The notes beneath the pieces were generated by a model that saw nothing but the letters and a program-made list of their open reading frames with translations, was not told where the DNA came from and ran no database searches. Shown here one piece after another: positions 19,721 to 45,256 of a stretch of 64,000 bases of DNA. A program made the position numbers and the translations under genes. This stretch comes from a virus (taxonomy: Duplodnaviria > Caudoviricetes): positions 96,001-160,000 of the IMG/VR virus record IMGVR_UViG_3300031555_003522; one strand, given 5' to 3'. Every line of letters begins with the position of its first letter. The first letter of the stretch is position 1.

Positions 19721-19791
19721 TTAATTACATAATCTCGTGTGTTAAATAAACACACGAGATTATTTTTTATTAAATACATAAACAATATAAT

Positions 19792-20084
19792 AAGTCATAG
19801 GTTGCGTTGAGAAAGATATAATGTTTTATCTTATACAATATCAACTGAAGCGAAGATCTATAAAGTAATTTGATTACATGTGCAGATGGTCTTCTTCATA
19901 CATGATAACACTCCTTATCTTCCATATTCCATATTTCACATTCCAACAATCAATACTATATAGGGAGCCAGTGATAATTGTAACCCGGCGATAATTCTAT
20001 ATATTCTTCTCACTGACCACGCAATAAATGACCTCCTGTAATTAGGGTGCTAGACTTTAATCGTCTAGCACCTTATCTCTTTTT
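19792..20084 (+). ncRNA. Candidate structured ncRNA A (~290 nt)
   Basis: AACA-N6-TA at 19781; ends pair (GTCAT/ATGAC, TTGCGT/ACGCAA, TGAGAAAGATATA/TATATTCTTCTCA); terminator 20044-20084; no ORF. Confidence 0.7.
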
Positions 20085-20140
20085 GATCGTATATTATAGA
20101 TCTGCAAACTCTATAGTAATATAAAAAGGAGTGATTAGAA

Positions 20141-22513
20141 TTGGCTGAAAAGATCTTAGAATCTACATCTAGTAATCAGTTTAAAACAGACTATATTAGA
20201 TATGGTGTTTATATCTTATTCCGTCGAGTATTATCTGATTATAGGGATGGACTTAAACCCGTTCAACGTCGAATCTTATGGGCCATGTTTAAAAATACAA
20301 AGGCTATGGGAAGTAAGGTTAAATCTGCAGCTATTGTAGGAGATGTGATGAAGTATTATCATCCTCATGGAGATGCTGCTATTTATGGAACTATGATTCC
20401 TATGGCTAACTGGTTTGAAACAAAAGTTCCTTTAATTGATCCGGGCGGAAATTTTGGTACGTTTCAGGGAGATCCTTATGCTGCCGCACGTTATACCGAA
20501 TGTCGCTTATCTAAATTTGCAATTGAAAATGTTCTTGGCGATATAATGGATACACCGGAATCTGTCGATTGGAGCTCGACTTATAGCGGTGCTACCATTG
20601 AACCAGATTATTTGCCTGTCAAATTGCCTTTACTACTTGTAAATGGTAGTTTTGGTATAGGCCTAGGAATGAGAGCCGAAATTCCTACCCATAATCTTGC
20701 TGAAGTAATAGATGCAACTTTGTATCTCATGGATCATCCTGATGGCGAAATTACATTAATTCCCGATCACTGTATGGCATGTGAGATAATTAATACAGAC
20801 TTTGATAAGATCTGTAAAGCTGGATTTGGCCATTATAGAATTCGTGGTAAGGTTACCGTTGAGGATTATAAGAATAGAAAAGCTCTTATAATCAATTCAG
20901 TGCCTAATTTGACCAGTCTTAATAGTATAACGGAAAAAATTGAAGATCTGATTAAGAAGAAGAAAATTATTCAGATTGATACTTGTTTTGATGAATCTAA
21001 TGGAGAAGTAATGAGATTTGTAATATTGCTTAAACCTGGTTCTGATCCTAACTTTGTAAAAGAGGTTATTTATAAGAATACTGGTCTTGAGCAAACTCTT
21101 AGAATTAACTTCGAAACCCTTAATGGATTAAATCCTCTTAGAATGTCTTATAAGTCTTATTTATTAAGCTTTATAGACTTTAGAAGGATGACCAAGTTTA
21201 GAGTTTATTCTAATAAACTTCAAGCAATTCAAACAAAGATTCATGAAAGAGAAGCATATATTAGAGTACTCGAATCCGGAGAAATTGATAATATCATTGC
21301 TATGATAAAGAAGCAGAAGACTGTGGATGATGAGTATCTTATCGAGTATTTGATTAAAAAGCTCAAAATCACTGATCTTCAAGCTAAATATATCATAAGT
21401 GCAGATTTAAAGAAGCTGTCTTATGGCTATCTATCCAAATATAAGCAAGAAGCTATGGAGCTTGAGCAAGCTAAATCTATATTAATGGGCAAAATTATGA
21501 GCGATAGAGCAATAGAAGATGATATAAAATCTGAATTGCTTGAAATCAAGGCTAAGTATGGAAAGCCTCGTTGCTGCGCAATTATAGATTCCGCTGAAGC
21601 TAATGATATTCCTAAAGGCGAAATGGTCGTATCTATTACTGAAAAGAATTTCATCAGAAAAACACCGGCTGGTGGCCCTGTTGGAAATATAAAAGGTGAT
21701 AGTATAAAGACAATGATCAAAATAGATAATACTGATAGTATTATTATATTTGATGAAATGGGTAAAGTATTTAAACTTCCTGTTCATAAGATTCCTCTTA
21801 CTGATAAAGGCGGTGCTGGTACTGATATTCGTTTCCTGATCAAAACTCTTACAGCAAATATTAATACAATCATACCAGAAAGTGTTATTAAAATGCTGTC
21901 TGAAAAAGGCCATCATAATAATAAGCATTATCTTGTTACCTTATCCAATGCCGGACTGATTAAGCGTATGGACTTAGATGATTTTACTACAGTTCCTCCG
22001 TCTGGTATTTTGTATGCAAAGGTAGATAAGGGCGATTTTATTAAAGATATAGTAATTGCTCATAGCAATTTTGATCTTATAATTTATGCTCATAGAAAGG
22101 CTGTTATTATTCATCTGAATGATATTCCTTATCTGAAGAGAAATACTAAAGGATCAAAAGCCATGTCTGGTGTTGATTGTGTGGATGGTATGTGCATCAT
22201 TCATAATAATTGCACTGACATAGTAGTAATTACAGAATCTGGACGTGCTAATAGAATTAATTTAATTCATGGCATGCCTAATAATGGCCGTGGCAAATCT
22301 GGCTCTAATCTTATCAAACTTTCATCTGGAGATAGGATTGTAGGAGTAGTCAGTGGTAATGAAAAAGATTTAATCCACATTAAGTGTACTGATACTGATT
22401 CGGTTATTCCAATTGCAAATCTTCAAATTGGAAGTTCTATAAGCACCGGAGATAAGGTCTTGACGACACGTGGAAACAAAATCATTCATTGCTATATTGA
22501 AAAACAGATGTAA
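20141..22513 (+). CDS. gyrA: DNA gyrase/topo II subunit A
   Basis: DGLKPVQRRIL, YHPHGD, AAARYTE, LLVNGSFGIG; C-terminal pinwheel-like repeats; TTG start. Confidence 0.95.
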   Translation: MAEKILESTSSNQFKTDYIRYGVYILFRRVLSDYRDGLKPVQRRILWAMFKNTKAMGSKVKSAAIVGDVMKYYHPHGDAAIYGTMIPMANWFETKVPLIDPGGNFGTFQGDPYAAARYTECRLSKFAIENVLGDIMDTPESVDWSSTYSGATIEPDYLPVKLPLLLVNGSFGIGLGMRAEIPTHNLAEVIDATLYLMDHPDGEITLIPDHCMACEIINTDFDKICKAGFGHYRIRGKVTVEDYKNRKALIINSVPNLTSLNSITEKIEDLIKKKKIIQIDTCFDESNGEVMRFVILLKPGSDPNFVKEVIYKNTGLEQTLRINFETLNGLNPLRMSYKSYLLSFIDFRRMTKFRVYSNKLQAIQTKIHEREAYIRVLESGEIDNIIAMIKKQKTVDDEYLIEYLIKKLKITDLQAKYIISADLKKLSYGYLSKYKQEAMELEQAKSILMGKIMSDRAIEDDIKSELLEIKAKYGKPRCCAIIDSAEANDIPKGEMVVSITEKNFIRKTPAGGPVGNIKGDSIKTMIKIDNTDSIIIFDEMGKVFKLPVHKIPLTDKGGAGTDIRFLIKTLTANINTIIPESVIKMLSEKGHHNNKHYLVTLSNAGLIKRMDLDDFTTVPPSGILYAKVDKGDFIKDIVIAHSNFDLIIYAHRKAVIIHLNDIPYLKRNTKGSKAMSGVDCVDGMCIIHNNCTDIVVITESGRANRINLIHGMPNNGRGKSGSNLIKLSSGDRIVGVVSGNEKDLIHIKCTDTDSVIPIANLQIGSSISTGDKVLTTRGNKIIHCYIEKQM

Positions 22514-22573
22514 TTATATGGGAGGGTTCTGCATGATCCCTCCCATTATTTTTTATAAAGGAGAGTAATTTTT

Positions 22574-23164
22574 ATGTCTAATGAAAAGAAAATATTTGAA
22601 ACTAGAGATGATTCTATTATAGAATATTCTAAATATGTAAATGATCATATTGCTCATATACATATGGCATTTACAGAATTTGGACCTAAATTATGTAAAG
22701 ATATAGAGGAAATGATTAATCTTCATGAAGATTTATATCTTTTAGTAAGGCCTAGAATATTAAAACATGACGAATCTAAATTTACTGAAGAAGAGTTTAT
22801 GCCGTATGCACAAAAATTCTATGCATGGAAAGGCATGGATAAATCTCAAGAGGAAGTAGAGGAAGAATTCAATAAAGCTTGGGATCATCATTATAAAAAT
22901 AATGATCATCATCCTGAGTATTGGGTAAAGGATAATATTCCAACCAATATGTATCCTTCTGCTATTGCAGAAATGTTAATAGACTGGATAGCTATGAGTA
23001 TGGCAAGAAATCAGAATATGTATGAATGGTGGACAAATGATAAGGGTGGTAAGGATGAGAAATCTAAATTAATGACCAAAACAGATTTTGATATAGTAAA
23101 TCGATGGATGGAAATGAGTAAAAATTTTATAGATTTCTCTAAGCGTAATAATGATAATGAATAA
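22574..23164 (+). CDS. HD-like metal-binding protein (DUF5662-like)
   Basis: HI.H, HDESK, WDHHYKNNDHHPEYW, EMLIDW. Confidence 0.75.
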   Translation: MSNEKKIFETRDDSIIEYSKYVNDHIAHIHMAFTEFGPKLCKDIEEMINLHEDLYLLVRPRILKHDESKFTEEEFMPYAQKFYAWKGMDKSQEEVEEEFNKAWDHHYKNNDHHPEYWVKDNIPTNMYPSAIAEMLIDWIAMSMARNQNMYEWWTNDKGGKDEKSKLMTKTDFDIVNRWMEMSKNFIDFSKRNNDNE

Positions 23165-23252
23165 AAATATATTATATAGATGAGTACGATCCACATAAGT
23201 ACTCAGAAAACCACATTTTACCACAAGACAAAAACAAAGAGGAGAATGAATT

Positions 23253-23609
23253 ATGAAAATGCACCAGAGCGATGCTATCGATGGAAGCACTGTGAGGCCT
23301 TTAGCCAGTACAGCATCGAGAGCAAAGAAACCCATGTCCAAAAGCAAAAAACAGAAAATTCGTAAACAGAGAATGAGACTCCTTTGGATTGCCACAAAGA
23401 TCATCTGCAAGAGATTGCTGATGTTCATCGGACTCCTTTTCGCATATGCTTGTACCTTTGGCGGTATGTTAGGCCTAATCGTTCTAATGGTACAGCCTGA
23501 AAATCCTTGGGCATATGCGATTCTTGGGGTATCCATTGGGTATATGTTTCTGGTATGCAACTGCAGAATTTTTGAGTACATTGGAGAGAAAAAGTGGTGG
23601 AAGAAATAA
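23253..23609 (+). CDS. Small membrane protein
   Basis: Basic N-terminus followed by two hydrophobic segments; GAGGAG RBS. Confidence 0.75.
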   Translation: MKMHQSDAIDGSTVRPLASTASRAKKPMSKSKKQKIRKQRMRLLWIATKIICKRLLMFIGLLFAYACTFGGMLGLIVLMVQPENPWAYAILGVSIGYMFLVCNCRIFEYIGEKKWWKK

Positions 23610-23740
23610 TCACCATACTCTGATGTGCTAAAAAAGATATAAGAGGGGCTCCGGCCCCTCTTTTCTTTTTTTTTTTATATTTTGGCGTGTTTTCAATATC
23701 TCAACATCTGAATAAATGAATTAAGGAGGTAATCATAGAT

Positions 23741-24976
23741 ATGTCTATTTATGATATTACATCTGAAGATAGAGTGATTTTAAAAGAAGCTGCAATGAAA
23801 TTAGATGCAGATACTGATGCTATAAAAAGAAAAATATATCCTAAGGTTGAAGAGGTATTACAATCTTCTTCTATAGTAAATGCTTATAAACGAGTAGTAA
23901 ATGATTTTGTATCATATAGGTATGAAGAGCTATACGATTCTCTTCCGTGTGCTAGAATGGTGTGTTCTGATGCAGAAATGGATAAAACCTTTACTGCTCT
24001 TAAAATAGATAAAACTTTTGTAAAGAAAGTTATTATTGATGAGACCTATTATGGAAAGATAGAGCACTTTTCTCCTCTTGCTGCTAAACATGAATTTACT
24101 ATTCTTATGCTAAATATTATTAGATATTTTTCTAATAAGAAGATGAATAAGGAAGCTGAATTGGCTCTTATACATCTTGCATTTTCTGGTAAATTTTATC
24201 CTTCTCTTCATTATAGATCTTATCCAATAGTACCAGCAAGATATGTAATGGAGTATGTTGTAAATAATAGACTTAGTAAAAAATTCGATCTTGCTACATA
24301 TGGTAGTGTAATTGGAGCGGTTAAGTCTGTTAGTAAAACTTGGTTAGAAAGATATCAAGATAAATTTAAATCTTTTACCGATGATGATATTAAATATCTG
24401 ATTGATCAGTTATATTCTAGAATCGGATCTTTTATAAAAAATGTAGCTACAGAGTACTACGATGTATATAATAATAAGGATGCTTATTTTGCATACTATT
24501 CTGATTCTACAGATCCTGATGATTATCATATAGCCGATAACGACATGTATAAAATTTCTCGCTATACAGAAAAAGCTGTAAATTATATAAATATTAATGG
24601 TATAGATTATAAGACATGTAAGGTCTGTTCAAATTCTGATATAACTCCAAATGAGTGTAAAGCTGTTATAGAAAGTATTATTTCTACTAAAGAAAATATT
24701 ACTACTATAAAAGAATTAATTTCTCTTATGATAGCTTTATATTTCTCTACCGGAGAAAATGATCTTACCAATATAAATTTCATTACATATACTATTTCTC
24801 CCAAACCTAATGCAAAACAGAAAGAAATAGTTCGAATGAAAGAAATTATTGAAGAATGGTTATGCGAATCTGGTACAGCATATATGAGACGTCGTTCTAG
24901 AGTTGCTACAAGAAATGCTTATGAACGAGCTGTTCGTATGTACTTTGCTCTTACTATTCATAAAGCTAATAGATAA
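23741..24976 (+). CDS. Hypothetical protein (late-type promoter)
   Basis: 411-aa ORF, AAGGAGGT RBS. Confidence 0.85.
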   Translation: MSIYDITSEDRVILKEAAMKLDADTDAIKRKIYPKVEEVLQSSSIVNAYKRVVNDFVSYRYEELYDSLPCARMVCSDAEMDKTFTALKIDKTFVKKVIIDETYYGKIEHFSPLAAKHEFTILMLNIIRYFSNKKMNKEAELALIHLAFSGKFYPSLHYRSYPIVPARYVMEYVVNNRLSKKFDLATYGSVIGAVKSVSKTWLERYQDKFKSFTDDDIKYLIDQLYSRIGSFIKNVATEYYDVYNNKDAYFAYYSDSTDPDDYHIADNDMYKISRYTEKAVNYININGIDYKTCKVCSNSDITPNECKAVIESIISTKENITTIKELISLMIALYFSTGENDLTNINFITYTISPKPNAKQKEIVRMKEIIEEWLCESGTAYMRRRSRVATRNAYERAVRMYFALTIHKANR

Positions 24977-25149
24977 AAGAATAATCCCCATGCCAAATAT
25001 AGGCATGGGGATTATCTTGTGTACAATTGTTATAAAGAAAGAAGAAACAAGACATGGAACTTTTTCTTTTATAAAAAACTGAAGTGGAATGATGAAAAGT
25101 ATTAAAATGGCGAATTTTAAAATACCTTCCACCCTCATCCACCAGCTTT
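24971..25149 (-). ncRNA. Candidate sRNA B (~175 nt), antisense to the RNAP beta translation start
   Basis: Minus-strand AACT-N6-TA at 25160-25149; 5' hairpin domain; segment 25062-25025 complementary to 31101-31132; terminator 25016-24971. Confidence 0.7.
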
Positions 25150-25284
25150 ATTCTAAAGTTCGTTAACTTTTTAATCTTTACATTTTACTTCTTTATTTTC
25201 TTATTTTTTTTTAATTTTTAGTTATAAAAAAATATTTTTCTATATTTAAATATCATAGGTATAATATAATCACTAGATAATTAT

Positions 25285-25377
25285 ATTAAAAACGGGAAAC
25301 AGAATTAAAAACGGGAAACAGAATTAAAAACGGGAAACAGAATTAAAAACGGGAAACAGAATTAAAAACGGGAAACA
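25285..25377 (+). repeat. Tandem 19-bp repeat ATTAAAAACGGGAAACAGA, 4 full copies plus 17 bp
   Basis: Exact copies start at 25285, 25304, 25323, 25342 and 25361; the last runs into a 13-bp inverted repeat (25373-25404). Confidence 0.97.
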
Positions 25378-25439
25378 TGGAAAACTCTAATGTTTTCCAT
25401 GTTTATTTCTAGAATATAAAATATATTTAACTAATAGAT

Positions 25440-26110
25440 AAAAGAATATATAAGAAAATATATCTATTATATATTTTGTAGCATTCACTTCTATATTATT
25501 ACCTTCTCTTTATCAAGAGATAAATAATTTTATTTATAATCCTACAATTTAATATTCAATATTATATTAGTGTATCATCTTTCACGAAACACGGTGGACT
25601 GTCTTTCCAAATGATATAATAATATAACAAACTCCAAGCTCTAGACGATTCTGCATGTCTATACTTACACTCACTTCTTATCTCTTTTTCTTATAAATAA
25701 AATTATTATTTAATTTTAATAAAAATGAAGGTTTGGTCTATAAATATATTATTTATAGATATATTCTATTATAGTATTCTTTGTCATGTATGCTATACCA
25801 ATATGCGCGACATTTTTAAAAAGCCGAAGTAAAAACTATTCAATACTATCTATCTAACTACCTTGGCAAGAGCGAGAGGCAAATAATGCATCTGCCAGAA
25901 AAGAGATATAAACATATTTCATTATCTCTTTTATATTAAACCTTAATAAATTTTATTGGTTTAATATAAATATTAGTATCGAGTATCATCAAAGGCTAAG
26001 AGCTATACTTTTTAGGTAATCGCTTGATTTCGTTTTTTCTAATCTATGCTATATTTCTCTCTATAACATTACCCTCTAGATCTATATAGATCTAGAGGGT
26101 ATTTTCTTCT
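25440..26110 (+). ncRNA. Candidate long structured ncRNA C (~670 nt)
   Basis: AACT-N6-TA at 25429; no ORF of 60 aa or more; several nested stems; terminator 26070-26111. Confidence 0.45.
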
Positions 26111-26169
26111 TCTAAAATACTGGACATATAATTAAACATAATTCTTTATTTTAGGAGGTTCATAAAATA

Positions 26170-26901: not shown

Positions 26902-26970
26902 TATTACTTTAAGTATATATTATACTTATGAGTGGTAAACCTATAAATATAAAATGGAGGATAAATAACT

Positions 26971-28197: not shown

Positions 28198-28274
28198 TAA
28201 GAGGTAAGTTTTACATACACCCAGGGAACTTATCCCTGGGTGTTATTTATTTTTCTTATGAAAGGAGAAGAACA

Positions 28275-31041: not shown

Positions 31042-31125
31042 TAAAATCTAGATTGAGAATATATTATAGATCTGATGAGAATCATACTCTCATCAGATCT
31101 AATTATTCAGAAGGAGAAACTTGAT

Positions 31126-33333
31126 ATGGCTTCTATGGATTTAATGAATCAGATCCGCCGAGTTAGTGTTCAGAAAGAAGATCATATGCTCGGTAAGGGT
31201 CTTCAAATGCCATTTGCGGCATCAAACTCCGGTAGTAGAAAACTGATGTTTGGAACACAGCTTGAACACAGACTTCCTCTTTTAAATCCGGAGGTTCCGT
31301 TTATTCAAACTGGTTACGAAATGGAGTTCGGTAAATACTCCTCTTCTTATATTACCGCCAAAGAAGATATGACTGTTGTGGGAATTGTTTCAAAATTCTC
31401 TTGGAAGCCTCAGCATCACTATTATATCTTCTGTATTGGAAATGAGACCAAAACTCTGTATATGTTTGAACGTAGAACGTATAAGCATATCACAGAAAAC
31501 TATGGATACCTTTTCAACAATAATGTTATGGATAGCATGACTATTGGGCAGAAGGTATCTAAAGAACAAGTCATTCAGAGCAGTACATCATTTGACGAAT
31601 ATGGAAATAGAATGGATGGCTGCAATCTTCTCACTCTATATACTGCCTGTGAAGAGACTATGGAAGATGCTATCGTTATATCTGAAAGTGCTTCCAAAAA
31701 ATTAGCTTCTCCTCTTGTTAAGAAAGTGAATATTGTTATTAATGATAACGATATTCCGCTTAATTTGTATGGTACTGCTGATTTCTACAAAGCATTCCCT
31801 GATATTGGAGAGGAAAGTGTTCATAGTACTCTTTGCGGTCTTCGGAGAGAAAAGAAAGAAGAATGTTTGTTCTCTCAGTCTTATGCAAGATTAAGAGAAC
31901 TTACTATTTCTGATGAAAAATATACAGTATCTGGTAGAGTTGTAGACATTAATGTCTATTGTAACTCACCCGATAGACTTGGTGAATATGAATATAATTC
32001 TCAGCTTAAGAAATATTATGATGAGAATCTCAGATTCAGCCAGGAAGTTATTAATGTACTCCATCCATATCTCGATCAGGGATATGCTCCCGAATACGAG
32101 TTACAAAGATTGATATCTATTTGTAATGGAGCACTTAATGGTAAACAATATTTTTCTGAAAGAGTATTCTCGAATATTGTATTAGAAGTTACTCTTATTG
32201 AAGAAATTCCTGTTCTTCGTGGTGATAAACTGTCTAATAGATATGGTGGTAAAGGCATTACCTCCAGAATCAAACCAGATAAGTTTATGCCTAAAACAAA
32301 AGATGGACAAACTGTAGATGTTATTCTCAATATGTGTGGTGTTTATGGACGTGAAAATGCTGGTCAGTTGTTTGAGATTACAGTAAGTTATGTATGTATC
32401 AAACTGCTTGAGTTTATTCAGACAAATACTCTAGACGTCGGAGAATGTATAAATCTATATTTAACGCTTTTGAAAATAGTGGCGCCATCTATGGTTTCTT
32501 ATATGGAAAATATGTTCTCATCTATGGATGAAGATGAGTGTATTAGATATATTGGAAATATTTTGTCTAGCGAGAAATCTATTTATCTTGTCATTGAACC
32601 TATGACAGAAAATATGACTATCGATAAAGTAGCAGAACTTTATGAAGCATTTAGCTGGATAAATCAGGAAAAGATGTTGATGCCTATCGTAGACTCTATG
32701 GGAGAAGTAAATTATATTCCGTCTAGACGTCCTATGGTTTATGGATATCAATATATCTATAGATTGAAACAGTATGCAGAGGAAAAGTTCTCCGTTACCT
32801 CACTATCTGCAACCAATATTAGAAATGAGAATAGTAAATCAAAGAGTTCTAATAACTATAAAGCTCTATATTCCCGCACTCCTATTAGATTCGGCGACAT
32901 GGAAACGGGAAATTTAATCCATCTTGGAGCTGAGCTAGTTGTTCAGATGCTTATGCTTTATTCTACATCTCCTAATGCAAGACGTCTTACAGCAGAAATG
33001 CTTACAGGAGATCCTTTCAATATTGATGTAAAACTCGATGATAATTCTACAAATAGAAATGTAGAAATCCTTAATGTGTATCTGAAGACAATGGGTCTAA
33101 AGATTACATTTAAGAAGATTCCCAAAGAAATTAATCATCCTATTCTTATTCAACCAATCACCTTTACCGATCCTAAAGAACACTATGGATCACCTATCAT
33201 ATTCCAGCATCCTGATGAGAAATTCTCTATAGAAGCTGAAGTAGAACGTTTGGTTAATGAGGAAAATGCACCCAAGCATCCTATAGAAATCATTCCCATT
33301 GATTTCCTTAGTGATCTTGAGCCATTTGAATAA
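31126..33333 (+). CDS. rpoB: RNA polymerase beta, C-terminal half (probably non-virion RNAP)
   Basis: SRKLMF, TGYE, MEDAIVISES, GDKLSNRYGGKG, VILN..R.N.GQ, YRLKQ, RFGDME; AAGGAG RBS before ATG 31126. Confidence 0.93.
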   Translation: MASMDLMNQIRRVSVQKEDHMLGKGLQMPFAASNSGSRKLMFGTQLEHRLPLLNPEVPFIQTGYEMEFGKYSSSYITAKEDMTVVGIVSKFSWKPQHHYYIFCIGNETKTLYMFERRTYKHITENYGYLFNNNVMDSMTIGQKVSKEQVIQSSTSFDEYGNRMDGCNLLTLYTACEETMEDAIVISESASKKLASPLVKKVNIVINDNDIPLNLYGTADFYKAFPDIGEESVHSTLCGLRREKKEECLFSQSYARLRELTISDEKYTVSGRVVDINVYCNSPDRLGEYEYNSQLKKYYDENLRFSQEVINVLHPYLDQGYAPEYELQRLISICNGALNGKQYFSERVFSNIVLEVTLIEEIPVLRGDKLSNRYGGKGITSRIKPDKFMPKTKDGQTVDVILNMCGVYGRENAGQLFEITVSYVCIKLLEFIQTNTLDVGECINLYLTLLKIVAPSMVSYMENMFSSMDEDECIRYIGNILSSEKSIYLVIEPMTENMTIDKVAELYEAFSWINQEKMLMPIVDSMGEVNYIPSRRPMVYGYQYIYRLKQYAEEKFSVTSLSATNIRNENSKSKSSNNYKALYSRTPIRFGDMETGNLIHLGAELVVQMLMLYSTSPNARRLTAEMLTGDPFNIDVKLDDNSTNRNVEILNVYLKTMGLKITFKKIPKEINHPILIQPITFTDPKEHYGSPIIFQHPDEKFSIEAEVERLVNEENAPKHPIEIIPIDFLSDLEPFE

Positions 33334-35735: not shown

Positions 35736-35851
35736 TCTGTAAAATCTTACAAAATTATAAACTGATTATTAAACGTATATTATAAGTTTGATCTGAGCCT
35801 CTCGGGTAGACTCGAGAGGCTTTAATCATAATACAAGGAGGACAAAAAGTC

Positions 35852-36466
35852 ATGAGCAAACAATTCGAACTCGGTAATACCTCTATCCCCAGTCAGTTTA
35901 GCGTAAATTTGAAAAATAATTACGGTCTGATCTGGCTGGAAGCTAGAACCGCGGACTTCTATCGTGTAGTCCTTGGAACTTTTGCAGATTGCTGCAGACT
36001 GTATCAGTCTAAGGCAAATTCTCGTATCGGCCTGTCCCTTAAGGATGATAAGGGCAATTTTATCTTTGGCACTATTCTGTCTTTCCAGAAGCCTGAGGAA
36101 GAGTCTGAAGATGATTCCGGTAACTGGTATCTGGAATTCACTATGGATGAGGCCGACATGATTGATCTCGATATTGATATTGACAATCATAGCCGTGAAT
36201 TCATCCAGACTGCTATTCTGAAATGCAATTCTGTTATGAATGGTCGTTTCAAGAATACAGAAGTTCTGTATCATATGTTTATCGAAGCAATTAATACACT
36301 CACCACCTTCCTTGATGTAAACGCTACCGAAGGTGAGGAAGTTGAAGTTGTTTTGCGTGCAGTATTTACTGCTACTGTTGCATACGATGATGAAGGAAAG
36401 AAAATCTTCTCCATCATTCCTGGTGAATATATTAAGCAGCTCATTAAGAACGATGCTGCTCTGTGA
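35852..36466 (+). CDS. Acidic hypothetical protein, first gene of the RNAP beta-N operon (candidate sRNA target)
   Basis: AAGGAGG RBS; early-type promoter 35776 and 5' hairpin. Confidence 0.88.
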   Translation: MSKQFELGNTSIPSQFSVNLKNNYGLIWLEARTADFYRVVLGTFADCCRLYQSKANSRIGLSLKDDKGNFIFGTILSFQKPEEESEDDSGNWYLEFTMDEADMIDLDIDIDNHSREFIQTAILKCNSVMNGRFKNTEVLYHMFIEAINTLTTFLDVNATEGEEVEVVLRAVFTATVAYDDEGKKIFSIIPGEYIKQLIKNDAAL

Positions 36467-36540
36467 TTTAAATCACGATGACCGGATGGGGTCTTCCCAT
36501 CCGGTTTATTTTTAATCTTCTAGAAAGGGGTTATAAACCT

Positions 36541-37203
36541 ATGTCTTTAGTAAAGGCTAAAATAGGTGAAACCATCTATGATGTAGTCAGCTACGAAGAA
36601 TATTATAGAAATATGTCACTATATCCAGCAGCATATACTGCTATTAGATATGGTGATGGGTATATATATCCCATTAGACCTCTGTCTGACTATAGACCTG
36701 GCGCATATATGACAGGATGTTTGGATGTTTTTAAACCTCCTACGACTGCTACAGAATGCGCTATGTATAGTGAACAGAATATCATAGATTTCACTAAGGC
36801 TGAAGGTATGAGAGATCTCATAACCTGTAGCCAGATGCTCAATGCCGCAGAGAGATCTATTCTTACAAATATAGACAACCTATTTATTCCCGATATTGGT
36901 GAGAATGATACTCCTGAAATGCAGGCTCTTAAACAGGCGATTATTGCAAAGCATATAGATCTCGATAAGTATGAACCTCGGTTTGGCCCTAATTATAATA
37001 ATGATAAGAGACTTCTGAGGAAGGATAGAATCACATTTGATAAATTCCGTACAATTGGTGAATGTTTGGATATTAAGGCAACTTTAACCATTGAAGATGC
37101 TAACCCTGATGTTCCTAATCCTATTGGACGAGCTATTAGTGTAGAAATTACTGGCCGTCCTATGTCTATCGATGGCGATGGTGAAGTGGAGGTACAGGAA
37201 TGA
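36541..37203 (+). CDS. Hypothetical protein
   Basis: Probable start ATG 36541; ATGA-coupled to the next gene. Confidence 0.8.
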   Translation: MSLVKAKIGETIYDVVSYEEYYRNMSLYPAAYTAIRYGDGYIYPIRPLSDYRPGAYMTGCLDVFKPPTTATECAMYSEQNIIDFTKAEGMRDLITCSQMLNAAERSILTNIDNLFIPDIGENDTPEMQALKQAIIAKHIDLDKYEPRFGPNYNNDKRLLRKDRITFDKFRTIGECLDIKATLTIEDANPDVPNPIGRAISVEITGRPMSIDGDGEVEVQE

Positions 37204-38975
37204 ATCAACGTGAAGCCATTGCTGGTTTTATAAATGAAAACCGAGCAAAATTTAATCCGTTATTCTTTCAAAGAGATGAAGATGAAATCATCAAAGAATT
37301 GATGAATGTAATTAAATCTTGTGAAAGAGATAATAAGTATTTTACTATTAAAGTACAATCATATAGAATCATTGATGATTATGATGAAATCAATCAGATT
37401 CTCTTTGATTATTATGAGAGTACTACAAAAAATAAATCCAAGGCTAAGAAACGAGACAATCAATATGGATTTATTAATCTTAATGAGTCTTATATTAGAC
37501 TCTTGATTGTGACTTATTATGTCAAGGATAGTAAAGAGGATGGTACAATTGATGTTGTGATCGCTGTACCTAGAATTATTGATAGATACTATTTCAAGAT
37601 TAATGGAATTATGAGATCCACTCTGTTCCAGATAGTCGATGGTAGTACCTATAATAATGGTACTTCTAATGCTAAAACTCCTAGTATTACTCTTAAGATT
37701 ATCTTTATGGCAACAAGAGTTACAAGATATTTCTTAAGTGTAAAAACAACTGAAGGAGACGAATTAAAGCTTACACATTATTACTCTCGTATCTTTAGTA
37801 AGGGTGTGAGCGCTGCAAAATATATATTTGCAAAGTTTGGCTTCTTAGGAGGATTAGATTTCTTCGGTCTTGCAAATGGATCTATCTTTATTACCAAAAA
37901 TGATCCTTGTGATACTAGCCTATATACCATTCAGTTACAGAATGAATGTTATATAAATAGTCCTAAAATGATTCTTGATAATAATGTGCTTGTACAATCT
38001 GTTATAGCAACACTATATCAAAATATCATTCCTTCTATGGATTATGAGACTATCTTTGATCCTGTTTTCTGGGTAAGAAGCCTTGGAGTAGAATTTAGTG
38101 GTGGCGGAGCCGAAAGACTTGCTGCTATTATGGATCCTGAAGATGATACCGTTACAGATACCTACGATAAAGGTTGTAGCATTCTTGATTCTTTCGAATC
38201 TATATATGATATCAGTACAAGAGAGTCTATTAAGCTCCCTGAAGAAGATAAAGCTACCACTTATCATATTCTTAGATGGATTATGAGAGAATTTAATGCC
38301 CTCAGAGTAAAGGATAATCTTGACATTAGTTGTAAGAAAATTCGATTCGCTGAGTATATTGCATCTCTCTATGCGTTTAAGATCGCTAAGGGTATATATC
38401 GTGTATCTGATATGAATAAGAAGGCTAGTATATTAAGCATTCGTAAAGCTATTAGAACCGATCCGAATTTCCTTTTAGCCGCTATAACCAAATCTAAAAT
38501 GGTATCTTATCGTAATATGGTTAGCGATATGGATTCTATGCAAGCCCTTAAATTCACATATAAAGGTGTATCTGGACTTGGAGAGAATTCTAATCAGTCT
38601 ATTCCTGATATTTATCGTTCTATTCATCCTAGTCATATAGGAAGAGTAGACCTTGATGCGTCTTCTGATGGTAATCCTGGTATTACTGGAACAATCTGTC
38701 CTTTCGCATCTATCTATGACGGCTTCTTTGAAGATTATCAGGAGCCTAATAGCTGGGAACAGGATTTTATGTCTGTAATGGATGACTATAAGAAAGCTAC
38801 CAATTTGAAAGATGCTATGATCTTTGAAGAAAAAATTCTTGGTACGGATAGACATGAAGATATAGAAGCTACCTCTGAAGTCATCGCTACGATGCAACAA
38901 ATCATTAAACCTGTTCTTTTTGCAGATCAGGGAGAGATTGTTTCATTGGAGGATGTTTATAATGGCAGCTATTAA
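37200..38975 (+). CDS. rpoB: RNA polymerase beta, N-terminal half
   Basis: YFKING..FQIVD and RSIHPSHIGRVDLDASSDGNPGITG (beta RDVHPTHYGRVC..EGPNIG). Confidence 0.85.
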   Translation: MNQREAIAGFINENRAKFNPLFFQRDEDEIIKELMNVIKSCERDNKYFTIKVQSYRIIDDYDEINQILFDYYESTTKNKSKAKKRDNQYGFINLNESYIRLLIVTYYVKDSKEDGTIDVVIAVPRIIDRYYFKINGIMRSTLFQIVDGSTYNNGTSNAKTPSITLKIIFMATRVTRYFLSVKTTEGDELKLTHYYSRIFSKGVSAAKYIFAKFGFLGGLDFFGLANGSIFITKNDPCDTSLYTIQLQNECYINSPKMILDNNVLVQSVIATLYQNIIPSMDYETIFDPVFWVRSLGVEFSGGGAERLAAIMDPEDDTVTDTYDKGCSILDSFESIYDISTRESIKLPEEDKATTYHILRWIMREFNALRVKDNLDISCKKIRFAEYIASLYAFKIAKGIYRVSDMNKKASILSIRKAIRTDPNFLLAAITKSKMVSYRNMVSDMDSMQALKFTYKGVSGLGENSNQSIPDIYRSIHPSHIGRVDLDASSDGNPGITGTICPFASIYDGFFEDYQEPNSWEQDFMSVMDDYKKATNLKDAMIFEEKILGTDRHEDIEATSEVIATMQQIIKPVLFADQGEIVSLEDVYNGSY

Positions 38976-39189
38976 ATACTTCCTGTATTCCTCTGAGCAA
39001 CTTAAACTTAGAAAGTCTGTAGAATCTAAGATGGGAAGAGTTTTTAGAACTGGTACAGTTATTGTGAATGGAAAGAGAAAGCCATTTACAGAACTGTCAT
39101 CTAAGCCTACATCTAGATTCTCAGATGCTATAGTTGTTGCTTCTGGGGATCCTACCTTGATGAACTATACACTGCCTGAAGGAGGCTAA
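38962..39189 (+). CDS. Small basic hypothetical protein
   Basis: GGAGG RBS before ATG 38962. Confidence 0.75.
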   Translation: MAAIKYFLYSSEQLKLRKSVESKMGRVFRTGTVIVNGKRKPFTELSSKPTSRFSDAIVVASGDPTLMNYTLPEGG

Positions 39190-39190
39190 T

Positions 39191-39466
39191 ATGTCATCAA
39201 AGAAGTTTAAGAATAAGCTTAAAGGTAAAAACAATAAAACAGCTTATTCTGTACCCGAGTATAATCACTATACTCAGTTTAAAGAAATCCATTTGGCATC
39301 AGATGGAATACTTACCATATGTAAAGCTATAACCATAGATGGTGTAGAAGAATTTTACGTATGGGATAACCCTAAACATCGTGAATTAGTTCGAAAGAAT
39401 TGTATCAAAGATGTAAAAATTATAGAAGGCCCTAATTTGGGTAAGGGGTGGAATTATGGAATCTAA
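39191..39466 (+). CDS. Hypothetical protein
   Basis: AGGAGG RBS, operonic. Confidence 0.75.
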   Translation: MSSKKFKNKLKGKNNKTAYSVPEYNHYTQFKEIHLASDGILTICKAITIDGVEEFYVWDNPKHRELVRKNCIKDVKIIEGPNLGKGWNYGI

Positions 39467-39794
39467 TAAAGAAATCCAAATAGAGCCTATAGAGATTTAT
39501 GGAGCAGGCGGATGTCCAAATTGTTCCTCAACTCTATATGTTGCTGATTCCGAATTAACTCTAATGGAAGTTAATAGAGATGGGATTCCTATCTCAGAAA
39601 CAACCACAATAACCTGTAAAGCCATATGCCCTAATTGTGGAACAAGAATACCTATGATGAGATACAATGGAGCATATGTTCCTTATAGTATTGATGCAGA
39701 GATTTGGAACGAAATTCAAAGAAAAGATAGAGCTGAGGCTCGTCTTAAGCAATTGAATGGTAATTCAAACCCTCTGGTAAATGAAGATACATGA
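39456..39794 (+). CDS. Zn-ribbon protein
   Basis: CPNC..CPNC. Confidence 0.8.
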   Translation: MESNKEIQIEPIEIYGAGGCPNCSSTLYVADSELTLMEVNRDGIPISETTTITCKAICPNCGTRIPMMRYNGAYVPYSIDAEIWNEIQRKDRAEARLKQLNGNSNPLVNEDT

Positions 39795-39828
39795 GGATAT
39801 TTAATAAAATTATTAAGGAGGAAGAAAG

Positions 39829-40515
39829 ATGAAAACCGCATATGCCAGCTTAAAGACTCATTTTGATACTATGATAATGGGTGGTAGACGTAGATATAGA
39901 CCTGATGGTTATGAATCTCTGCGCGATACCTATGAAATTGCATATGATATCAAGATTCCTTTGTTCGATATTTATAGGGAAAAACTCGATTGTAATACGA
40001 ACCCTATTGGTTATATCGCAACTCTTATGGGCCCCGAAGCAAAGGTTGATGATATTCCCTTTGGAATTATGGTAGATGGGGATAATATTGTTTATAGCCA
40101 TGCTATAAATGAAGATTACAGAAGCATAATTACAGATAAGCAGATATCTATATATATCTGTGAAGTATATTCTGCCATTAGAGGCATTATTAAGCAGGAT
40201 AAGTTCTATCTTGGCGATAAAGAAGCTAGAACTAATATGCTTGTAGCTGTAACTCGTGCTCTCCCCTTCTATTTAACCTTCTTCCACTTTAAGGCTATCC
40301 TTTCGAATGGATCTATTAGCGGAGACCCCAAGATTATTGGAGAAAAAGCATCAGAAGCATTTGTGATGATTCTTGAGAAGTATATCACAAATACAGAAGA
40401 AGATGCTAAAGCTCTTTTGGAATTCCTTCTGAATAAGAATAATACATTCAGCGATGATATATCCATTATTTACCGTCAGATGACGTTTAATAATAAGATT
40501 GAACTGTTTGTATAA
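39829..40515 (+). CDS. Hypothetical protein
   Basis: AAGGAGG RBS; terminator about 40525-40564. Confidence 0.8.
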   Translation: MKTAYASLKTHFDTMIMGGRRRYRPDGYESLRDTYEIAYDIKIPLFDIYREKLDCNTNPIGYIATLMGPEAKVDDIPFGIMVDGDNIVYSHAINEDYRSIITDKQISIYICEVYSAIRGIIKQDKFYLGDKEARTNMLVAVTRALPFYLTFFHFKAILSNGSISGDPKIIGEKASEAFVMILEKYITNTEEDAKALLEFLLNKNNTFSDDISIIYRQMTFNNKIELFV

Positions 40516-40581
40516 CTTATAAAATAAATGCGGGCGAGATTACATCAAACCCGCATTCTTTTTTGAAAGGAGAATCGATTT

Positions 40582-40926
40582 ATGGCTGCAAATAAACCAT
40601 ATGACATAACTCCGATTCCTCAAGAACCTATAGAAGAAGGACTTATAAATCCTATTATCTTTAATAGACCCGATATGTGCCCAAATTGTAAATCGCAAAA
40701 GGTAGAGCTTATGAGCTTTAATAACTATCCTCAAGGATATAATGGAGCCGTAGATGCTTTTCTATCTGGTTACTTGGTAACATTCGATAAATATGAGATA
40801 AGAAGTATGAGATGTAAGTCCTGTACTAAAGAATTTGTTATCGATTGGGCTGAGGGATTCCCAAAACCCTTAAGAGACACAGATAAAAGTAATATTTTCT
40901 TTATGGAATTTCTTGCAGGTATATGA
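40582..40926 (+). CDS. Zn-ribbon protein
   Basis: CPNC..CKSC; NPIIFN motif. Confidence 0.8.
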   Translation: MAANKPYDITPIPQEPIEEGLINPIIFNRPDMCPNCKSQKVELMSFNNYPQGYNGAVDAFLSGYLVTFDKYEIRSMRCKSCTKEFVIDWAEGFPKPLRDTDKSNIFFMEFLAGI

Positions 40927-41019
40927 CCACTATCGTTTATAAACGATAGTGGTTAGTTATTTTTATCACAATACCTGTCCTATAACTACCTAATAAGGTG
41001 CATTTAGGAGGCAACAAAA

Positions 41020-43731
41020 ATGAAATTCACATCATTACACCTTACCAATTACATTGGTATATATAATGGTATGGGATTATATGATATCCATATAGATATG
41101 ACAAAATCCCAAAATAGAATAATGATTATACGAGGAGATAATGGTAGTGGAAAATCAACTCTTGCAAAAGCAATGAGTGTATTTCCAGATCCCAATGATT
41201 CCTTTATTCCAGGTATGCCCGCCAGAAAAGAAATAGTTCTTGCAGATGGCCCAACTTTTTATCGACTTCTTTTTATTCATGGAGTAAAAGCAAATGGAGA
41301 TAGAGAGGTAACAAAGGCATATATAACTAAGACATTTGGAAACACAGCCATTGAATTGAATGAGAATGGTAATGTTTCTTCATATAAAGATATCTTATAT
41401 TCCGAGCTTGGATTGGATGCTAATTTTGTTGCATTATCTCAATTGAGCAATGACGATAGAGGATTGGCGGATAAGAAGCCAGCAGAAAGAAAGAGATTTG
41501 TTAATTCTATAATATCTTCACTTGAGACCTATAATAGTATTTATAAGACATTAACAAAAAGATCTACTAATCTAAAATCTATGATTAGTTCCATTGCAGC
41601 AAAACTTGGAGTTCTTGGAGATCAGCAAACCGTAGATGCAAATTTACAATCCGTTGAAGACAGAATAAACACTCTTCAGGATCTAAAAGATAAAGCTGTT
41701 ACAGAGATGGCAAAAGACCAGTCTCTTATATCTATACTAGATCCAGATGGATCTATTCAATTGAATAATACAAAAATATCTACAGATCTTGCAATTGCTA
41801 AAAAAGATGTAGAGAAAATTCAAGCTAAAATTCTTGCTATTAGACAAGAGAATTCTATACCAGATGGAGATTCTCATAATTTAAGAAGAATAGTATCTGA
41901 TAAAAAGGGATCTCTTATGGTAGCTAATCAGCTTGCTAGAAACAAACTAGAGAATTTATTAAATAGACAAGAAAATGAAGCTAAACTCTTAGGAGATAAG
42001 ACGAGAAGATTGGAGTCTCTTAAGAGTGAATATGATTATGGTATACTTGTAGACAAAATAGCTATTTATACACAAGATATTGCAGATATAGAGAATACTC
42101 TAGGAGCAATAGGAATACGAGATATAATGTCTATAAGTAAAGCTGAATATATATTGGCTCTCGAAACCCTTAGAGACTTATCGGAATATATTCTGAGATT
42201 TAAAGCTTCTACTGATTTGAAAATAATAGAAAGCATTATTGATGAGTATATGCCTACTGGAAAAATACCGGCAAGACAAAGTTCAGATGAAGATGCCAAG
42301 ATAGTTGAAGAAAGCAAATTCAAGATGGTTTCTATAGAAAAAGATGTTGATCTTTTGGAATCTAGACTTGGATTATTAGATAAACTTCAACTAAGACCAG
42401 ATGACTGTACCGATGATTCTTGTCCATTTATTAAAGAAGCTCTAGAATTTTCTAGAACTAATCCTCATAATGAAATAGATAGACTTGATGCATTGGTTTA
42501 TTCGTGCCAAGCTTTAATAGACCACCATTCTAAAGAAATAATTAGAAAAGATGATTATAATAATGCAGTAAACACATTTGCTATTATAGTAAGAGAGATA
42601 GATAAGAACGGAGCTATACTATCTAAAATGCCTAATGGTGAAATGTTTGCAGATAAAAAGCTATTCTTTTCTAGATTATTATCTGGATATAGTTTCGAGT
42701 ATATGGCAGAAATATATAAATATATTGAGTATGCCAATCTATTTGATACCTATAGACAGACTAAGCCAGTTCTTGCCGAGTATCAAGCAGAGCTTAAGGT
42801 TTATGAAAGCAAATCTGAGATTATAGAATCACTAATGAGCGATATACAATCTATAAGTATTGTATTAGACGAAATAATGAGATCTATAGACCCGATAAAT
42901 AAAGAAATTAGTGATAGAGAATTAGAAATATTATCATTACAAGAACTTGAAGGTATATACGATACCATCATTTCTTATGAAGATAAAATGAAACCACTAA
43001 TTCAAAGTATTTCTGAGCTTGAAACTATGCTGAGCAACAATCAGAAAAAAATGATAGATATTACAGAAGCATTAACTAGAATTTCTTCTCATAGAGAATC
43101 TATAGGTAGGTATACATTTGATTTGTCTCCTCTTATGCGAGAAAGAGATAAACTTGTGCATACCTTACAGATGATGAAAGATTATGAGAAAGAACGCGAT
43201 GAGCTTCAGTCGACCTATGATTTTATAGAGACTATTAAATATTACTCATCACCGACTACTGGAATTCAGTTGGTTTTCATGGAACTTTATATGGGTAAAA
43301 TAATAGCTTTAGCTAATAAATTATTGAGCCTATTATTTGGAGGTCAGTTTGTTATACAGCCGTTTGTAATAAATGAGAGTGAATTTAGAATTCCTTGTTT
43401 AGGAAATGGATATATAAATGATGATATATCTTCTATGAGTAGTTCTCAGATTGGAATGATATCGATGATTTTAAGTTTTGCATTATTGTATCATTCTAGT
43501 ACTAAGTATAATATTATTAAACTTGATGAGATCGATGGACCGTTAGATCAAAATAATAGACTATTTTTCTCAGATGTATTAAATAATATTATGGATATTA
43601 TGGGCACAGAACAGTGTATTATGATATCTCATAACTCTGAGCTTCAAGTAGATAATGCTGATGTAATTCTATTAAAGCATGATATAAACAATACTGAATA
43701 TAGAAGAGGAAATATAATTTGGAGTTATTAA
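41020..43731 (+). CDS. sbcC: SbcC/Rad50 ATPase
   Basis: GDNGSGKST, coiled coils, CTDDSCPF hook, SMSSSQ, KLDEIDGPLD, ISH. Confidence 0.93.
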   Translation: MKFTSLHLTNYIGIYNGMGLYDIHIDMTKSQNRIMIIRGDNGSGKSTLAKAMSVFPDPNDSFIPGMPARKEIVLADGPTFYRLLFIHGVKANGDREVTKAYITKTFGNTAIELNENGNVSSYKDILYSELGLDANFVALSQLSNDDRGLADKKPAERKRFVNSIISSLETYNSIYKTLTKRSTNLKSMISSIAAKLGVLGDQQTVDANLQSVEDRINTLQDLKDKAVTEMAKDQSLISILDPDGSIQLNNTKISTDLAIAKKDVEKIQAKILAIRQENSIPDGDSHNLRRIVSDKKGSLMVANQLARNKLENLLNRQENEAKLLGDKTRRLESLKSEYDYGILVDKIAIYTQDIADIENTLGAIGIRDIMSISKAEYILALETLRDLSEYILRFKASTDLKIIESIIDEYMPTGKIPARQSSDEDAKIVEESKFKMVSIEKDVDLLESRLGLLDKLQLRPDDCTDDSCPFIKEALEFSRTNPHNEIDRLDALVYSCQALIDHHSKEIIRKDDYNNAVNTFAIIVREIDKNGAILSKMPNGEMFADKKLFFSRLLSGYSFEYMAEIYKYIEYANLFDTYRQTKPVLAEYQAELKVYESKSEIIESLMSDIQSISIVLDEIMRSIDPINKEISDRELEILSLQELEGIYDTIISYEDKMKPLIQSISELETMLSNNQKKMIDITEALTRISSHRESIGRYTFDLSPLMRERDKLVHTLQMMKDYEKERDELQSTYDFIETIKYYSSPTTGIQLVFMELYMGKIIALANKLLSLLFGGQFVIQPFVINESEFRIPCLGNGYINDDISSMSSSQIGMISMILSFALLYHSSTKYNIIKLDEIDGPLDQNNRLFFSDVLNNIMDIMGTEQCIMISHNSELQVDNADVILLKHDINNTEYRRGNIIWSY

Positions 43732-43803
43732 ATAATAGAGGAAGGAGATAATCCTTCCTCTATTATTTTTTTTAATATTTTACATAATCTGTAACATTAT
43801 TAT

Positions 43804-44120
43804 GAGGAGAAGCTGCGTCCGCCCATATAAAATAACGCCTTTGGAATTACCCCACCTCAGCATGTTTTGGCAGAGGTTGATTTCCATTTGAGTTTTACAC
43901 TCTAACGCCGTATTTTATACGCACCTTCTTCTGACATAGCGGCTCGGGTCCTATACGATATATTTGCCACTTTATATTATCGGTAGGATCGAGCATGTGC
44001 TGGTTTCTCAATTGTCCATATGGCGATCTCCTATGTATGTTACCTTCGTGATGCTTGCGGTAAAATAAAAGTGGCAAAAGTATCCCCCGGCGTAAATGGC
44101 GCCGGGGGATATTCTTTTTT
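43804..44120 (+). ncRNA. Candidate structured ncRNA D (~315 nt) with pseudoknot
   Basis: AACA-N6-TG at 43793; GC-rich; stems 43807-43818/43919-43930, 43826-43833/43911-43918, 43942-43953/43983-43994; loop TTTGCCACTTT (43963-73) pairs with AAAGTGGCAAA (44068-78); terminator 44081-44120. Confidence 0.8.
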
Positions 44121-45078
44121 AATATTCATTCATTATATTATTTCCGTCTAATACAAGAGGCCATACCTGATTGATATTTCTATTTCTTGCTATCTGAGTA
44201 TGAATATCAATTGTAGTATCCTCTAATAAGAAATTATCTGGTCTAGGATAATTAGGAATACTAGCACCAGTAGTCGTATCGATTACGTCAAAACAACGCT
44301 GACCAGTAGCCTGATTATATCTAACTACAGTCTGTACATTAGGATTAGATTCCATACGCATTCTAGCCTGTTCCGGACTCAGTCCATTAGGAGTAATTCC
44401 ATTATTGGCAACCATCTCTACACCAGAAACGCCAGCGGCAGGATTATTTACACCAAGAGTGATATCCTGAATACTAGGAGCAGGAGGTGTATAAACGCCA
44501 ACAGGAGTATTTACAAATGCAGAATAGATATCCATCATCTTCATATCATCATTAGCTTCACTCTTATCCATTTTGAGAGTCTTAAATCTATTAAGATTAA
44601 GATTATGGGCCTGAGTAATAGTGCTGTTAAGTTCTTTAATAGCAGAGATCTTGGTGGATAATAAAGCACTAGCAGATGCTGTTAAATTAGTAAGGTAAGT
44701 GTATTTACCTTTAATAGTTTTGCTAGCGCGAATCTCATCAATATCTCCTTTAATAGCTGCACTCATTTCGTCAGCCTGGACTATAGCACCGCGTAAAAGA
44801 TTATTGGTTTCAGAGTACGAAGTGTGATAGTTTGTCTCTGCTATATCTGCACCGGGTACAGGATTTATCATTCCATTTATACCCAATTGATCTTCAGGAA
44901 TAACTGTGACACTAGCTTTCTTCTTTTTCTTGGATTTGGGATCAGGATCTACTGGTAAAGATGATGCTTCTTCAGAAGTAAAGAAACTAAAATCAACACC
45001 AATACTATCATTATCATTATTGGCTTCCGGTATGCTTTGTGCAATCATACCACCAAATAAAGAAGAGATCTGTTCCAT
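44119..45078 (-). CDS. Hypothetical protein
   Basis: GGAGG RBS before ATG 45078; late-type promoter upstream. Confidence 0.85.
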   Translation of the reverse strand: MEQISSLFGGMIAQSIPEANNDNDSIGVDFSFFTSEEASSLPVDPDPKSKKKKKASVTVIPEDQLGINGMINPVPGADIAETNYHTSYSETNNLLRGAIVQADEMSAAIKGDIDEIRASKTIKGKYTYLTNLTASASALLSTKISAIKELNSTITQAHNLNLNRFKTLKMDKSEANDDMKMMDIYSAFVNTPVGVYTPPAPSIQDITLGVNNPAAGVSGVEMVANNGITPNGLSPEQARMRMESNPNVQTVVRYNQATGQRCFDVIDTTTGASIPNYPRPDNFLLEDTTIDIHTQIARNRNINQVWPLVLDGNNIMNEY

Positions 45079-45155
45079 TATATAAACCTCCATTATTTTT
45101 TTTTAATTATTAAGATGTTTAAGGTAATACTTTACGACATCACAAACATTATTTT

Positions 45156-45256
45156 AATCCTTAAAGGATTAGAAATCGCTCATAACGACTTTTTGATCTG
45201 CCCTGTGTATTTGAAAATATAGCCACGCTTCTGCCGGAGCGTGGCTATATTCTTTT
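45156..45256 (+). ncRNA. Candidate sRNA E (~100 nt), antisense to the translation start of gene 35852
   Basis: AACA-N6-TA at 45145; 5' hairpin 45155-45171; linker 45178-45214 complementary to 35826-35857; terminator 45216-45256. Confidence 0.78.

Follow-up and report, generated by a model that had tools for sequence, protein, structure and literature searches.

How jumbo phages with two RNA polymerases end early protein synthesis is an open question, because to our knowledge no off-switch is known for the virion RNA polymerase (vRNAP) that they inject. The question is raised here by a 64,000-nucleotide stretch of the IMG/VR virus record IMGVR_UViG_3300031555_003522, which represents a 208-kb AR9-like phage (207,861 bases, of which this stretch, called the window below, covers bases 96001-160000; GC 34%). 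An initial annotation had described five units in it (A to E, Table 1) that lack open reading frames (ORFs), and had proposed that small RNAs (sRNAs) made from them by the late, non-virion RNA polymerase (nvRNAP) cover the ribosome-binding sites (RBSs) of early genes. Our comparisons indicate that the candidate late anti-RBS sRNAs form a genuine family, one member of which appears to have a co-evolving target. In the best explanation, to which we give a probability of about 0.6, the units would give rise to late, nvRNAP-made structured RNAs, most of them with an anti-RBS segment, and the RNA of unit E would repress gene 35852.

Five units with late-type promoters and terminators

The setting is that of phage AR9. 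PBS1 and AR9 are the closest cultured records (approximately 31% identity), and genes 31126 (31126-33333; 7s00_C, E-value: 1.2e-82) and 37200 match the C- and N-terminal chains of the nvRNAP beta subunit. Judging from these cultured relatives and from the strong Shine-Dalgarno (SD) sequences of the window genes, the host is probably a Firmicute. For AR9, early promoters are given as AAATATATATTAT-N6-G and late promoters as AACA-N6-TA/G (PMC5312081). The early-type motif TATATTAT-N5-TG occurs in 27 copies in the present genome, 26 of them intergenic, and was indeed found upstream of all four genes proposed as targets (at 5531, 20090, 31060 and 35776); a late-type motif is also present at gyrA (20107) and at gene 35852 (35760), as had been cautioned. 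This promoter logic and the phage type support the reading of the units as late.

Each unit starts at an AAC(A/T)-N6-T(A/G) motif (19781+, 25160-, 25429+, 43793+ and 45145+) and closes with a hairpin and a U tract, which confirms the start motifs and intrinsic terminators initially described; the motifs of B and C read AACT, a deviation from the AR9 consensus. Starts of the form AACA-N6-TA/G and genes for nvRNAP are thus found together in this genome, the combination expected of AR9-type late units. On neither strand of any unit does an SD-bearing ORF of more than 23 codons begin, in agreement with the ORF-less description; unit B sits within a 92-codon ORF and unit D has a 60-codon antisense ORF, both without an SD sequence. 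The predicted RNAs fold better than shuffled sequences (z = -5.0, -7.2, -5.8, -3.4 and -5.7 for A to E), with the terminators adding to these scores. No unit reached the gathering threshold of an Rfam family (best match 29.6 bits versus 80), and c4, RsaE, riboswitches, ribozymes and 6S RNA were not matched; the only match at threshold in the window is a group I intron (12208-12430). Type I toxin-antitoxin or cis-antisense systems were rejected because SD-bearing antisense ORFs in the five units are at most 13 codons long and are not conserved.

The late-type motif arises often by chance (approximately 2 times per kb on each strand of intergenic DNA), and evidence was therefore drawn from positional conservation in relatives, namely five IMG/VR genomes (four of them independent) and syntenic metagenome loci (G and L numbers below; G000 is the source genome). 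Slots, promoters and terminators are kept while the unit bodies vary, and the arrangement expected of a trans-encoded sRNA gene, a promoter and a terminator without an ORF, is retained. Because late-type promoters, terminators and covarying helices recur at these slots in the relatives, the five units are very probably non-coding RNA (ncRNA) genes, and what is conserved in them speaks for functional RNAs and against spacer DNA. It is very unlikely that they are untranscribed or non-functional intergenic DNA, such as double terminators, tiny gene remnants on the opposite strand or chance motifs of an AT-rich sequence. The frequency of the late motif, the strong AT-richness of C, one automatically found G001 candidate that is the antisense of an uncalled small gene, and the lack of significance of strict anti-RBS modules in the five window units alone would fit such an origin, but promoter positions are conserved, helices change in a compensatory manner, and the core of E is both preserved and covarying with gene 35852, as described below.

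Table 1. Features of the five units and their proposed targets (window positions)
Feature	Position	Strand	Description
Gene 5599 early-type promoter and start	5531-5603	+	secondary E match (rank 3), not D-specific
Unit A	19781-20084	+	late-type promoter, predicted rod-like 293-nt RNA, central C/U-rich loop, terminator
Kink-turn-like motif in A	19849-19969	+	19849-58 with 19961-69
A loop module CAU-N7-CUCC	19901-19915	+	predicted unpaired (0.98); not gyrA-specific
A linker anti-SD ACCUCCUGU	20030-20039	+	ahead of terminator in G000 and L094; inside loop in L121
gyrA early-type promoter and start	20090-20143	+	proposed A target, not supported
Unit B	24971-25160	-	late-type promoter 25160-25149, predicted 179-nt RNA, terminator
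B antisense segment	25038-25057	-	complementary to 31126 start region
Tandem array	25285-25379		19-bp units between divergent B and C promoters; origin candidate
Unit C	25429-26110	+	late-type promoter, conserved 5' scaffold 25479-25770, terminator
B target region	31060-31129	+	early-type promoter and translation start of the gene for the C-terminal half of nvRNAP beta
E target region	35776-35857	+	early-type promoter 35776, leader hairpin, initiation region 35826-35857
Gene 35852	35852-36466	+	204 aa, clade-conserved, predicted target of E
nvRNAP beta N-terminal half	37200-38975	+	7s00_c, E-value: 4.8e-36; third gene downstream of early promoter 35776
Unit D	43793-44120	+	late-type promoter, predicted 317-nt RNA, hypervariable body, closing helix 43963-73/44068-78, terminator
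D module CAU-N8-CUCCU	44016-44032	+	anti-RBS module
Unit E	45145-45256	+	late-type promoter 45145; RNA of 101 nt predicted to start at 45156; terminator whose loop is invariant
E pairing core	45178-45214	+	anti-AUG, anti-spacer and anti-SD; complementary to 35852 leader

Unit E and gene 35852

Because duplexfold, which takes no account of accessibility, was uninformative, an IntaRNA-like heuristic combining Turner energies with opening costs was written, and targets were ranked among 195 own and approximately 700 foreign initiation regions (leaders). Six doubtful candidate units were dropped before statistics, among them G001 25367, whose cross-genome match of -41 kcal reflects the antisense of an uncalled small gene. 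In this ranking the predicted pairing of E with gene 35852 was first among the 195 own leaders (-17.3; best foreign leader -14.7), and the site was the best for E among 3,726 coding-strand windows of the genome (-17.9 versus -13.0 kcal/mol for the next), with the early-type genes 5599 and 53718 among the next sites. The 35852 leader is not sticky in general, as its median rank over 43 RNAs was 55-89.

The same pair was then followed across relatives in a matrix of E orthologs and 35852-ortholog leaders from seven independent lineages. Cognate pairs fell at percentiles 0.001, 0.007, 0.009, 0.911, 0.275, 0.031 and 0.006 of 898 control leaders, that is, the local E fits its own leader in five of seven lineages (top 0.1-3%). 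Off-diagonal cells were mostly unremarkable, the exception being the G004 E on the L122 leader (0.013), and permutation of the diagonal gave p = 4e-4 (2.8e-3 without the discovery genome). L125, which was fetched once the hypothesis had been fixed, served as a prospective test, and its cognate pair ranked 4/898. The result was robust to other windows and to context-based accessibility (Fisher p between 5e-4 and 1e-3 without the G000 clade).

The 35-nt core of E is 94-100% identical in relatives, as compared with 38-54% identity at the 4-fold sites of the neighbouring gene; on this comparison, the core is under strong purifying selection. The promoter position is also kept, and four pairs of the terminator stem show compensatory changes. 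As expected of a trans-acting sRNA, unit E has a conserved seed that is predicted to be accessible and is complementary to the RBS of a gene elsewhere. Searches found no match to the E region in cultured phage records and none to its core in IMG/VR.

Since E changes in step with the distant RBS of gene 35852 across relatives, it probably silences this gene, as the initial annotation had suggested. The single-stranded core would shield the 35852 mRNA from position -26 to position +5 and thereby block ribosome loading, with repression of this early gene of its own genome and, secondarily, of other early leaders. E would then feed back negatively, at the late stage, on an early transcription unit in which the N-terminal half of nvRNAP beta is also encoded, further downstream. 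The product of this downstream gene (37200) matches the beta chain (496 aa) in the nvRNAP structure of AR9 and presumably corresponds to gp105, in AR9 the one nvRNAP subunit that comes from an early gene (PMC5312081). A terminator-like hairpin (36480-36515), with no obvious promoter behind it, lies between genes 35852 and 36541, and the beta-N gene may depend on read-through past it.

The product of gene 35852 received no assignment in Pfam, PHROG, PDB-sequence or Atlas searches. Its structure model is confident, but the likeness to single-chain IHF/HU is weak (2iif, Z 5.8), with higher scores (Z 8-9) for unrelated microtubule and gliding proteins. The early leaders of genes 31126 (31075-31110) and 35852 (35795-35822) start with hairpins that show compensatory changes in relatives and are possible stability or regulatory elements.

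The other units and their anti-RBS modules

Of the four RNA-mRNA pairs initially proposed, E/35852 is well supported, B/31126 is plausible, and A/gyrA and D/5599 were rejected. Like E/35852, B/31126 ranked first among the 195 own leaders and genome-wide (-14.2 versus -12.4), although four or five foreign leaders equal it. The pairing is kept in L121 (top 1%), whose leader allele fits the other half of the same B segment, but it is lost in L094, L119, G004 and L007; outside the closest clade the B pairing is not retained. In that clade, B probably represses the beta-C gene in the same manner, and E and B together might, more speculatively, provide negative feedback on nvRNAP. A/gyrA ranked 39-128 of 195 own leaders and failed in three orthologous pairs (174-697 of 902 control leaders were better in four genomes), and D/5599 ranked 6-25; neither pair goes beyond chance or holds in orthologs.

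Unit A is absent from G004, G005, L007 and L119. Its best-kept feature is a predicted kink-turn-like pattern, which we take to resemble Kt-7, with a 3-nt bulge and tandem G.A/A.G pairs between two stems; it is present in G000, L094 and L009 (stem probability 0.5-1.0) and, by eye, in L121. DNA searches of five distant relatives gave no homology to the bodies of A and D. An exact 18-nt repeat of the anti-SD loop segment of A (19903-19920) lies on the same strand in an unrelated gene (genome 61952-61969), probably by chance. In the region 9353-13526, gyrB is split by the group I intron (Rfam match 12208-12430) with an HNH endonuclease gene (10869-11864); in relatives, different insertions occur in gyrB and in gyrA, among them an intein in the L121 gyrA.

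In unit B, a 27-nt promoter/5' block and a CGCC motif are invariant among relatives, while the pyrimidine tract varies. Units B and C point away, in opposite directions, from a tandem array flanked by an AT-rich tract and the two divergent late-type promoters, and an array of 12-19-bp units occupies the same slot in most relatives, with another unit in each lineage (L107, L110, L094, L119, L010). We consider it a candidate origin or packaging site. A CRISPR array was ruled out, as the 19-mers stand head-to-tail with no unique spacers. In single-sequence folds, the scaffold of C forms nested stems, in which a long stem (25523-39/25691-707) encloses a variable insert; these elements and the late motif are kept in L094, L096 and L121. 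The best match of C (genome 167231) is not conserved, and no conserved target emerged from the leader ranking in relatives.

These features suggest another role, in which B and C would be origin-associated transcripts (primers or R-loops) flanking an iteron array and A would be a protein-binding RNA acting through its kink-turn. That the invariant part of B is its promoter and G-rich 5' end beside the repeats, rather than the anti-RBS tract, agrees with this, as do the divergence of B and C from the array and the preservation of the kink-turn in A. As a replacement for an anti-RBS function it is somewhat unlikely: it leaves E and the enrichment of modules unexplained, and the case for an origin consists of the repeats, as the GC skew follows the coding strand. 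It is, however, compatible with the best explanation, to which an origin-related role of B and C is a live addition.

Unit D keeps its promoter and terminator in relatives, and its closing helix covaries in L089, L091 and L092, with an A-U to G-C change in the close clade. Its body is replaced even between close relatives (50-54% identity versus a shuffle level of 51%), while anti-RBS modules are usually retained. The best own match of D is an early-type gene outside the window (genome 85133); gene 72482, which ranks well in five genomes, was rejected as a target because its leader is generally sticky. The D-slot RNAs of L105 (G004 56849-57255) and L108 (G001 166174-166585) have a common 3' domain with the short boxes UCUGUCGAUC, GGACGCAG and GGCGUCA, which are absent from the D of the window, and the 5' domain of the G004 RNA contains five consecutive modules of CAU and anti-SD.

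The initial annotation had described a CAU-pyrimidine module in four of the units. Across 54 units of related phages, chosen by promoter and terminator or by synteny rather than by motif (some are homologous and not fully independent), CAU with an anti-SD tetramer occurred 29 times versus 10.1±3.1 in dinucleotide shuffles (0/1000), whereas the five window units alone gave 4 versus 1.5 (p = 0.07). Module density was approximately 10-fold higher in units (3.3 per kb) than in same-strand intergenic controls (0.3 per kb); the modules are mostly predicted to be unpaired, and none of the matching opposite-strand ORFs that close reaches 30 codons. Synteny, covarying stems and this family-wide enrichment support the view that the units are late-promoter ncRNA genes containing anti-RBS segments. 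In most of the RNAs, a C/U-rich segment (an anti-SD sequence, often accompanied by a CAU in register) would be exposed as a single strand, pair over the SD sequence and start codon of chosen mRNAs and block 30S loading, as in trans-acting sRNAs of Gram-positive bacteria. A, C and D would be conserved scaffolds with exchangeable anti-RBS inserts, directed not at the targets proposed but perhaps at variable phage or host mRNAs.

An automatic search located further ORF-less units running from a late promoter to a terminator at genome positions 44889, 92757, 185139 and 185466 (loci L102, 44889-45191; L103, 92757-92859; L104, 185139-185565), and approximately 7-8 per genome in four relatives. The anti-RBS segments of 92757 and 185466 have the early-type genes 53718 and 181304 as top matches, but orthologs of 92757, 185139 and 185466 showed no clear conserved target. 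In G001, two similar units stand in tandem upstream of the 185675 ortholog. Tandem late units also occur at the B and A slots of some relatives (L009:10580-11144, L094:3300-3790 and L121:2690-3280), which suggests duplication or insertion of whole RNA cassettes.

An early-promoter gene was the best SD-covering match for 6/9 units in G000 (expected 1.7, p = 0.002; foreign leaders 4/36), a figure that includes two pairs picked by eye in the initial annotation. In G001, G004, G005 and G006 this held for 3/28 units, with 3.4 expected. Because the bias is seen in G000 alone, and with those two pairs included, the coordinated early-to-late switch that had been proposed is unproven. That five RNAs jointly silence vRNAP-made early mRNAs would accord with the 5-6 of nine G000 units, 92757 and 185466 among them, that match early genes best, but this full circuit is improbable given that the bias was not reproduced, two of the four pairs that were named do not hold up, no conserved target was found for C and A is missing from several relatives.

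Own-genome leaders were no better partners than foreign ones over all units (own best in 7/37), and most modules are therefore without a demonstrable phage target; host targets or multiple weak targets are possible. The chief targets of the RNAs might accordingly be host mRNAs, for example those of defence, toxin or stress genes, or else co-infecting elements, the matches to phage leaders being a by-product of shared SD sequences and the turnover of D reflecting changes of host. Such a role could account for the missing own-genome advantage, for D bodies that differ at shuffle level between close relatives while most keep their modules, and for an E core that stays invariant where the 35852 leader drifts. 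A host target alone cannot, however, yield the lineage-specific E/35852 diagonal, and among 185,579 bacterial genome records a single one contains the E core's exact complement, which is chance level and not beside an SD sequence, although this test is weak. We regard this alternative as unlikely.

Several points weigh against repression of early genes by late phage RNAs as well. The late motif by itself is weak evidence, the pairing energies come from our own heuristic, the A/gyrA and D/5599 pairings fail, and neither the early-gene bias in relatives nor a general preference for own leaders was seen. E/35852 pairing fails in G005 and L118/L120, where the best partner of E is a gene further along in the same cluster (the 36541 or 39829 ortholog), a shift of partner that is suggestive only. 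It is also weak in L091, although the E core is nearly unchanged there, so that other targets or a protein must also constrain E. The hairpin between genes 35852 and 36541 makes an effect on the nvRNAP subunit gene speculative. A broader proposal, that AR9-like jumbo phages carry genome-wide sets of nvRNAP-made RNAs in which stable scaffolds and rapidly exchanged anti-RBS cassettes form a re-programmable silencing layer, shutting early genes, capping nvRNAP and, through D-like members, tracking phage or host targets, is offered as rather doubtful.

Relation to known RNAs and further observations

Trans-acting sRNAs of Firmicutes such as RsaE/RoxS, RNAIII and FsrA occlude SD sequences with C/U-rich seeds. 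The units share with them their own promoter, an intrinsic terminator, an exposed pyrimidine seed and short, bulged predicted pairing over the SD sequence and AUG of several targets. They differ in that a lytic jumbo phage encodes them, behind a promoter for a phage RNA polymerase, that their best target is a phage mRNA and that they match Rfam only below threshold. The c4 antisense RNA of phages P1 and P7 pairs around the RBS of a phage mRNA and blocks its translation, as predicted here, but it controls antirepressor and immunity in temperate phages (PMC12197685); the present units are several and unrelated, lie at least 9 kb from their target, would be tied to the timing of two RNA polymerases and have no Rfam similarity to c4. 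VpdS (VP882), PreS (lambda) and SviR (a Vibrio phage-inducible element) are also virus-encoded RNAs acting in trans on phage or host RNAs, although they belong to temperate phages or satellites of Proteobacteria, with VpdS and PreS requiring Hfq (PMC12197685, PMC10884466).

Orphan ncRNAs of phiKZ, 201phi2-1 and phiR1-37 and late antisense RNAs of AR9 have been described (PMC10914365, PMC11512511, PMC12197685, PMC5312081). They likewise form ORF-less units from transcription start site to terminator in phages with two RNA polymerases, and the AR9 promoter consensus fits the units described here. In the open papers, none has a demonstrated target and most are derived from 5' untranslated regions or are cis-antisense, in contrast to the covarying trans target of E. 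One review calls ncRNA roles in lytic phages largely uncharacterised (PMC10884466), and a 2026 jumbo-phage review mentions ncRNAs merely as possible regulators (PMC13282480). E and gene 35852 appear to be partners in a specific RNA-mRNA pair that co-evolves and is open to testing without the phage, and the finding predicts that the same layer is worth seeking in cultured relatives such as AR9 and PBS1. The hypervariability of D suggests fast retargeting, which would be unusual for sRNAs.

Elsewhere in the window, the long plus-strand ORFs at 51659-54502, 57344-58993 and 58948-60417 are shadow ORFs antisense to structural genes on the minus strand (GC 40-47%) and are unlikely to be real genes. 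A tubulin-family gene, absent from the window, is found in L119 (11923-13101) between the orthologs of genes 27220 and 28275.

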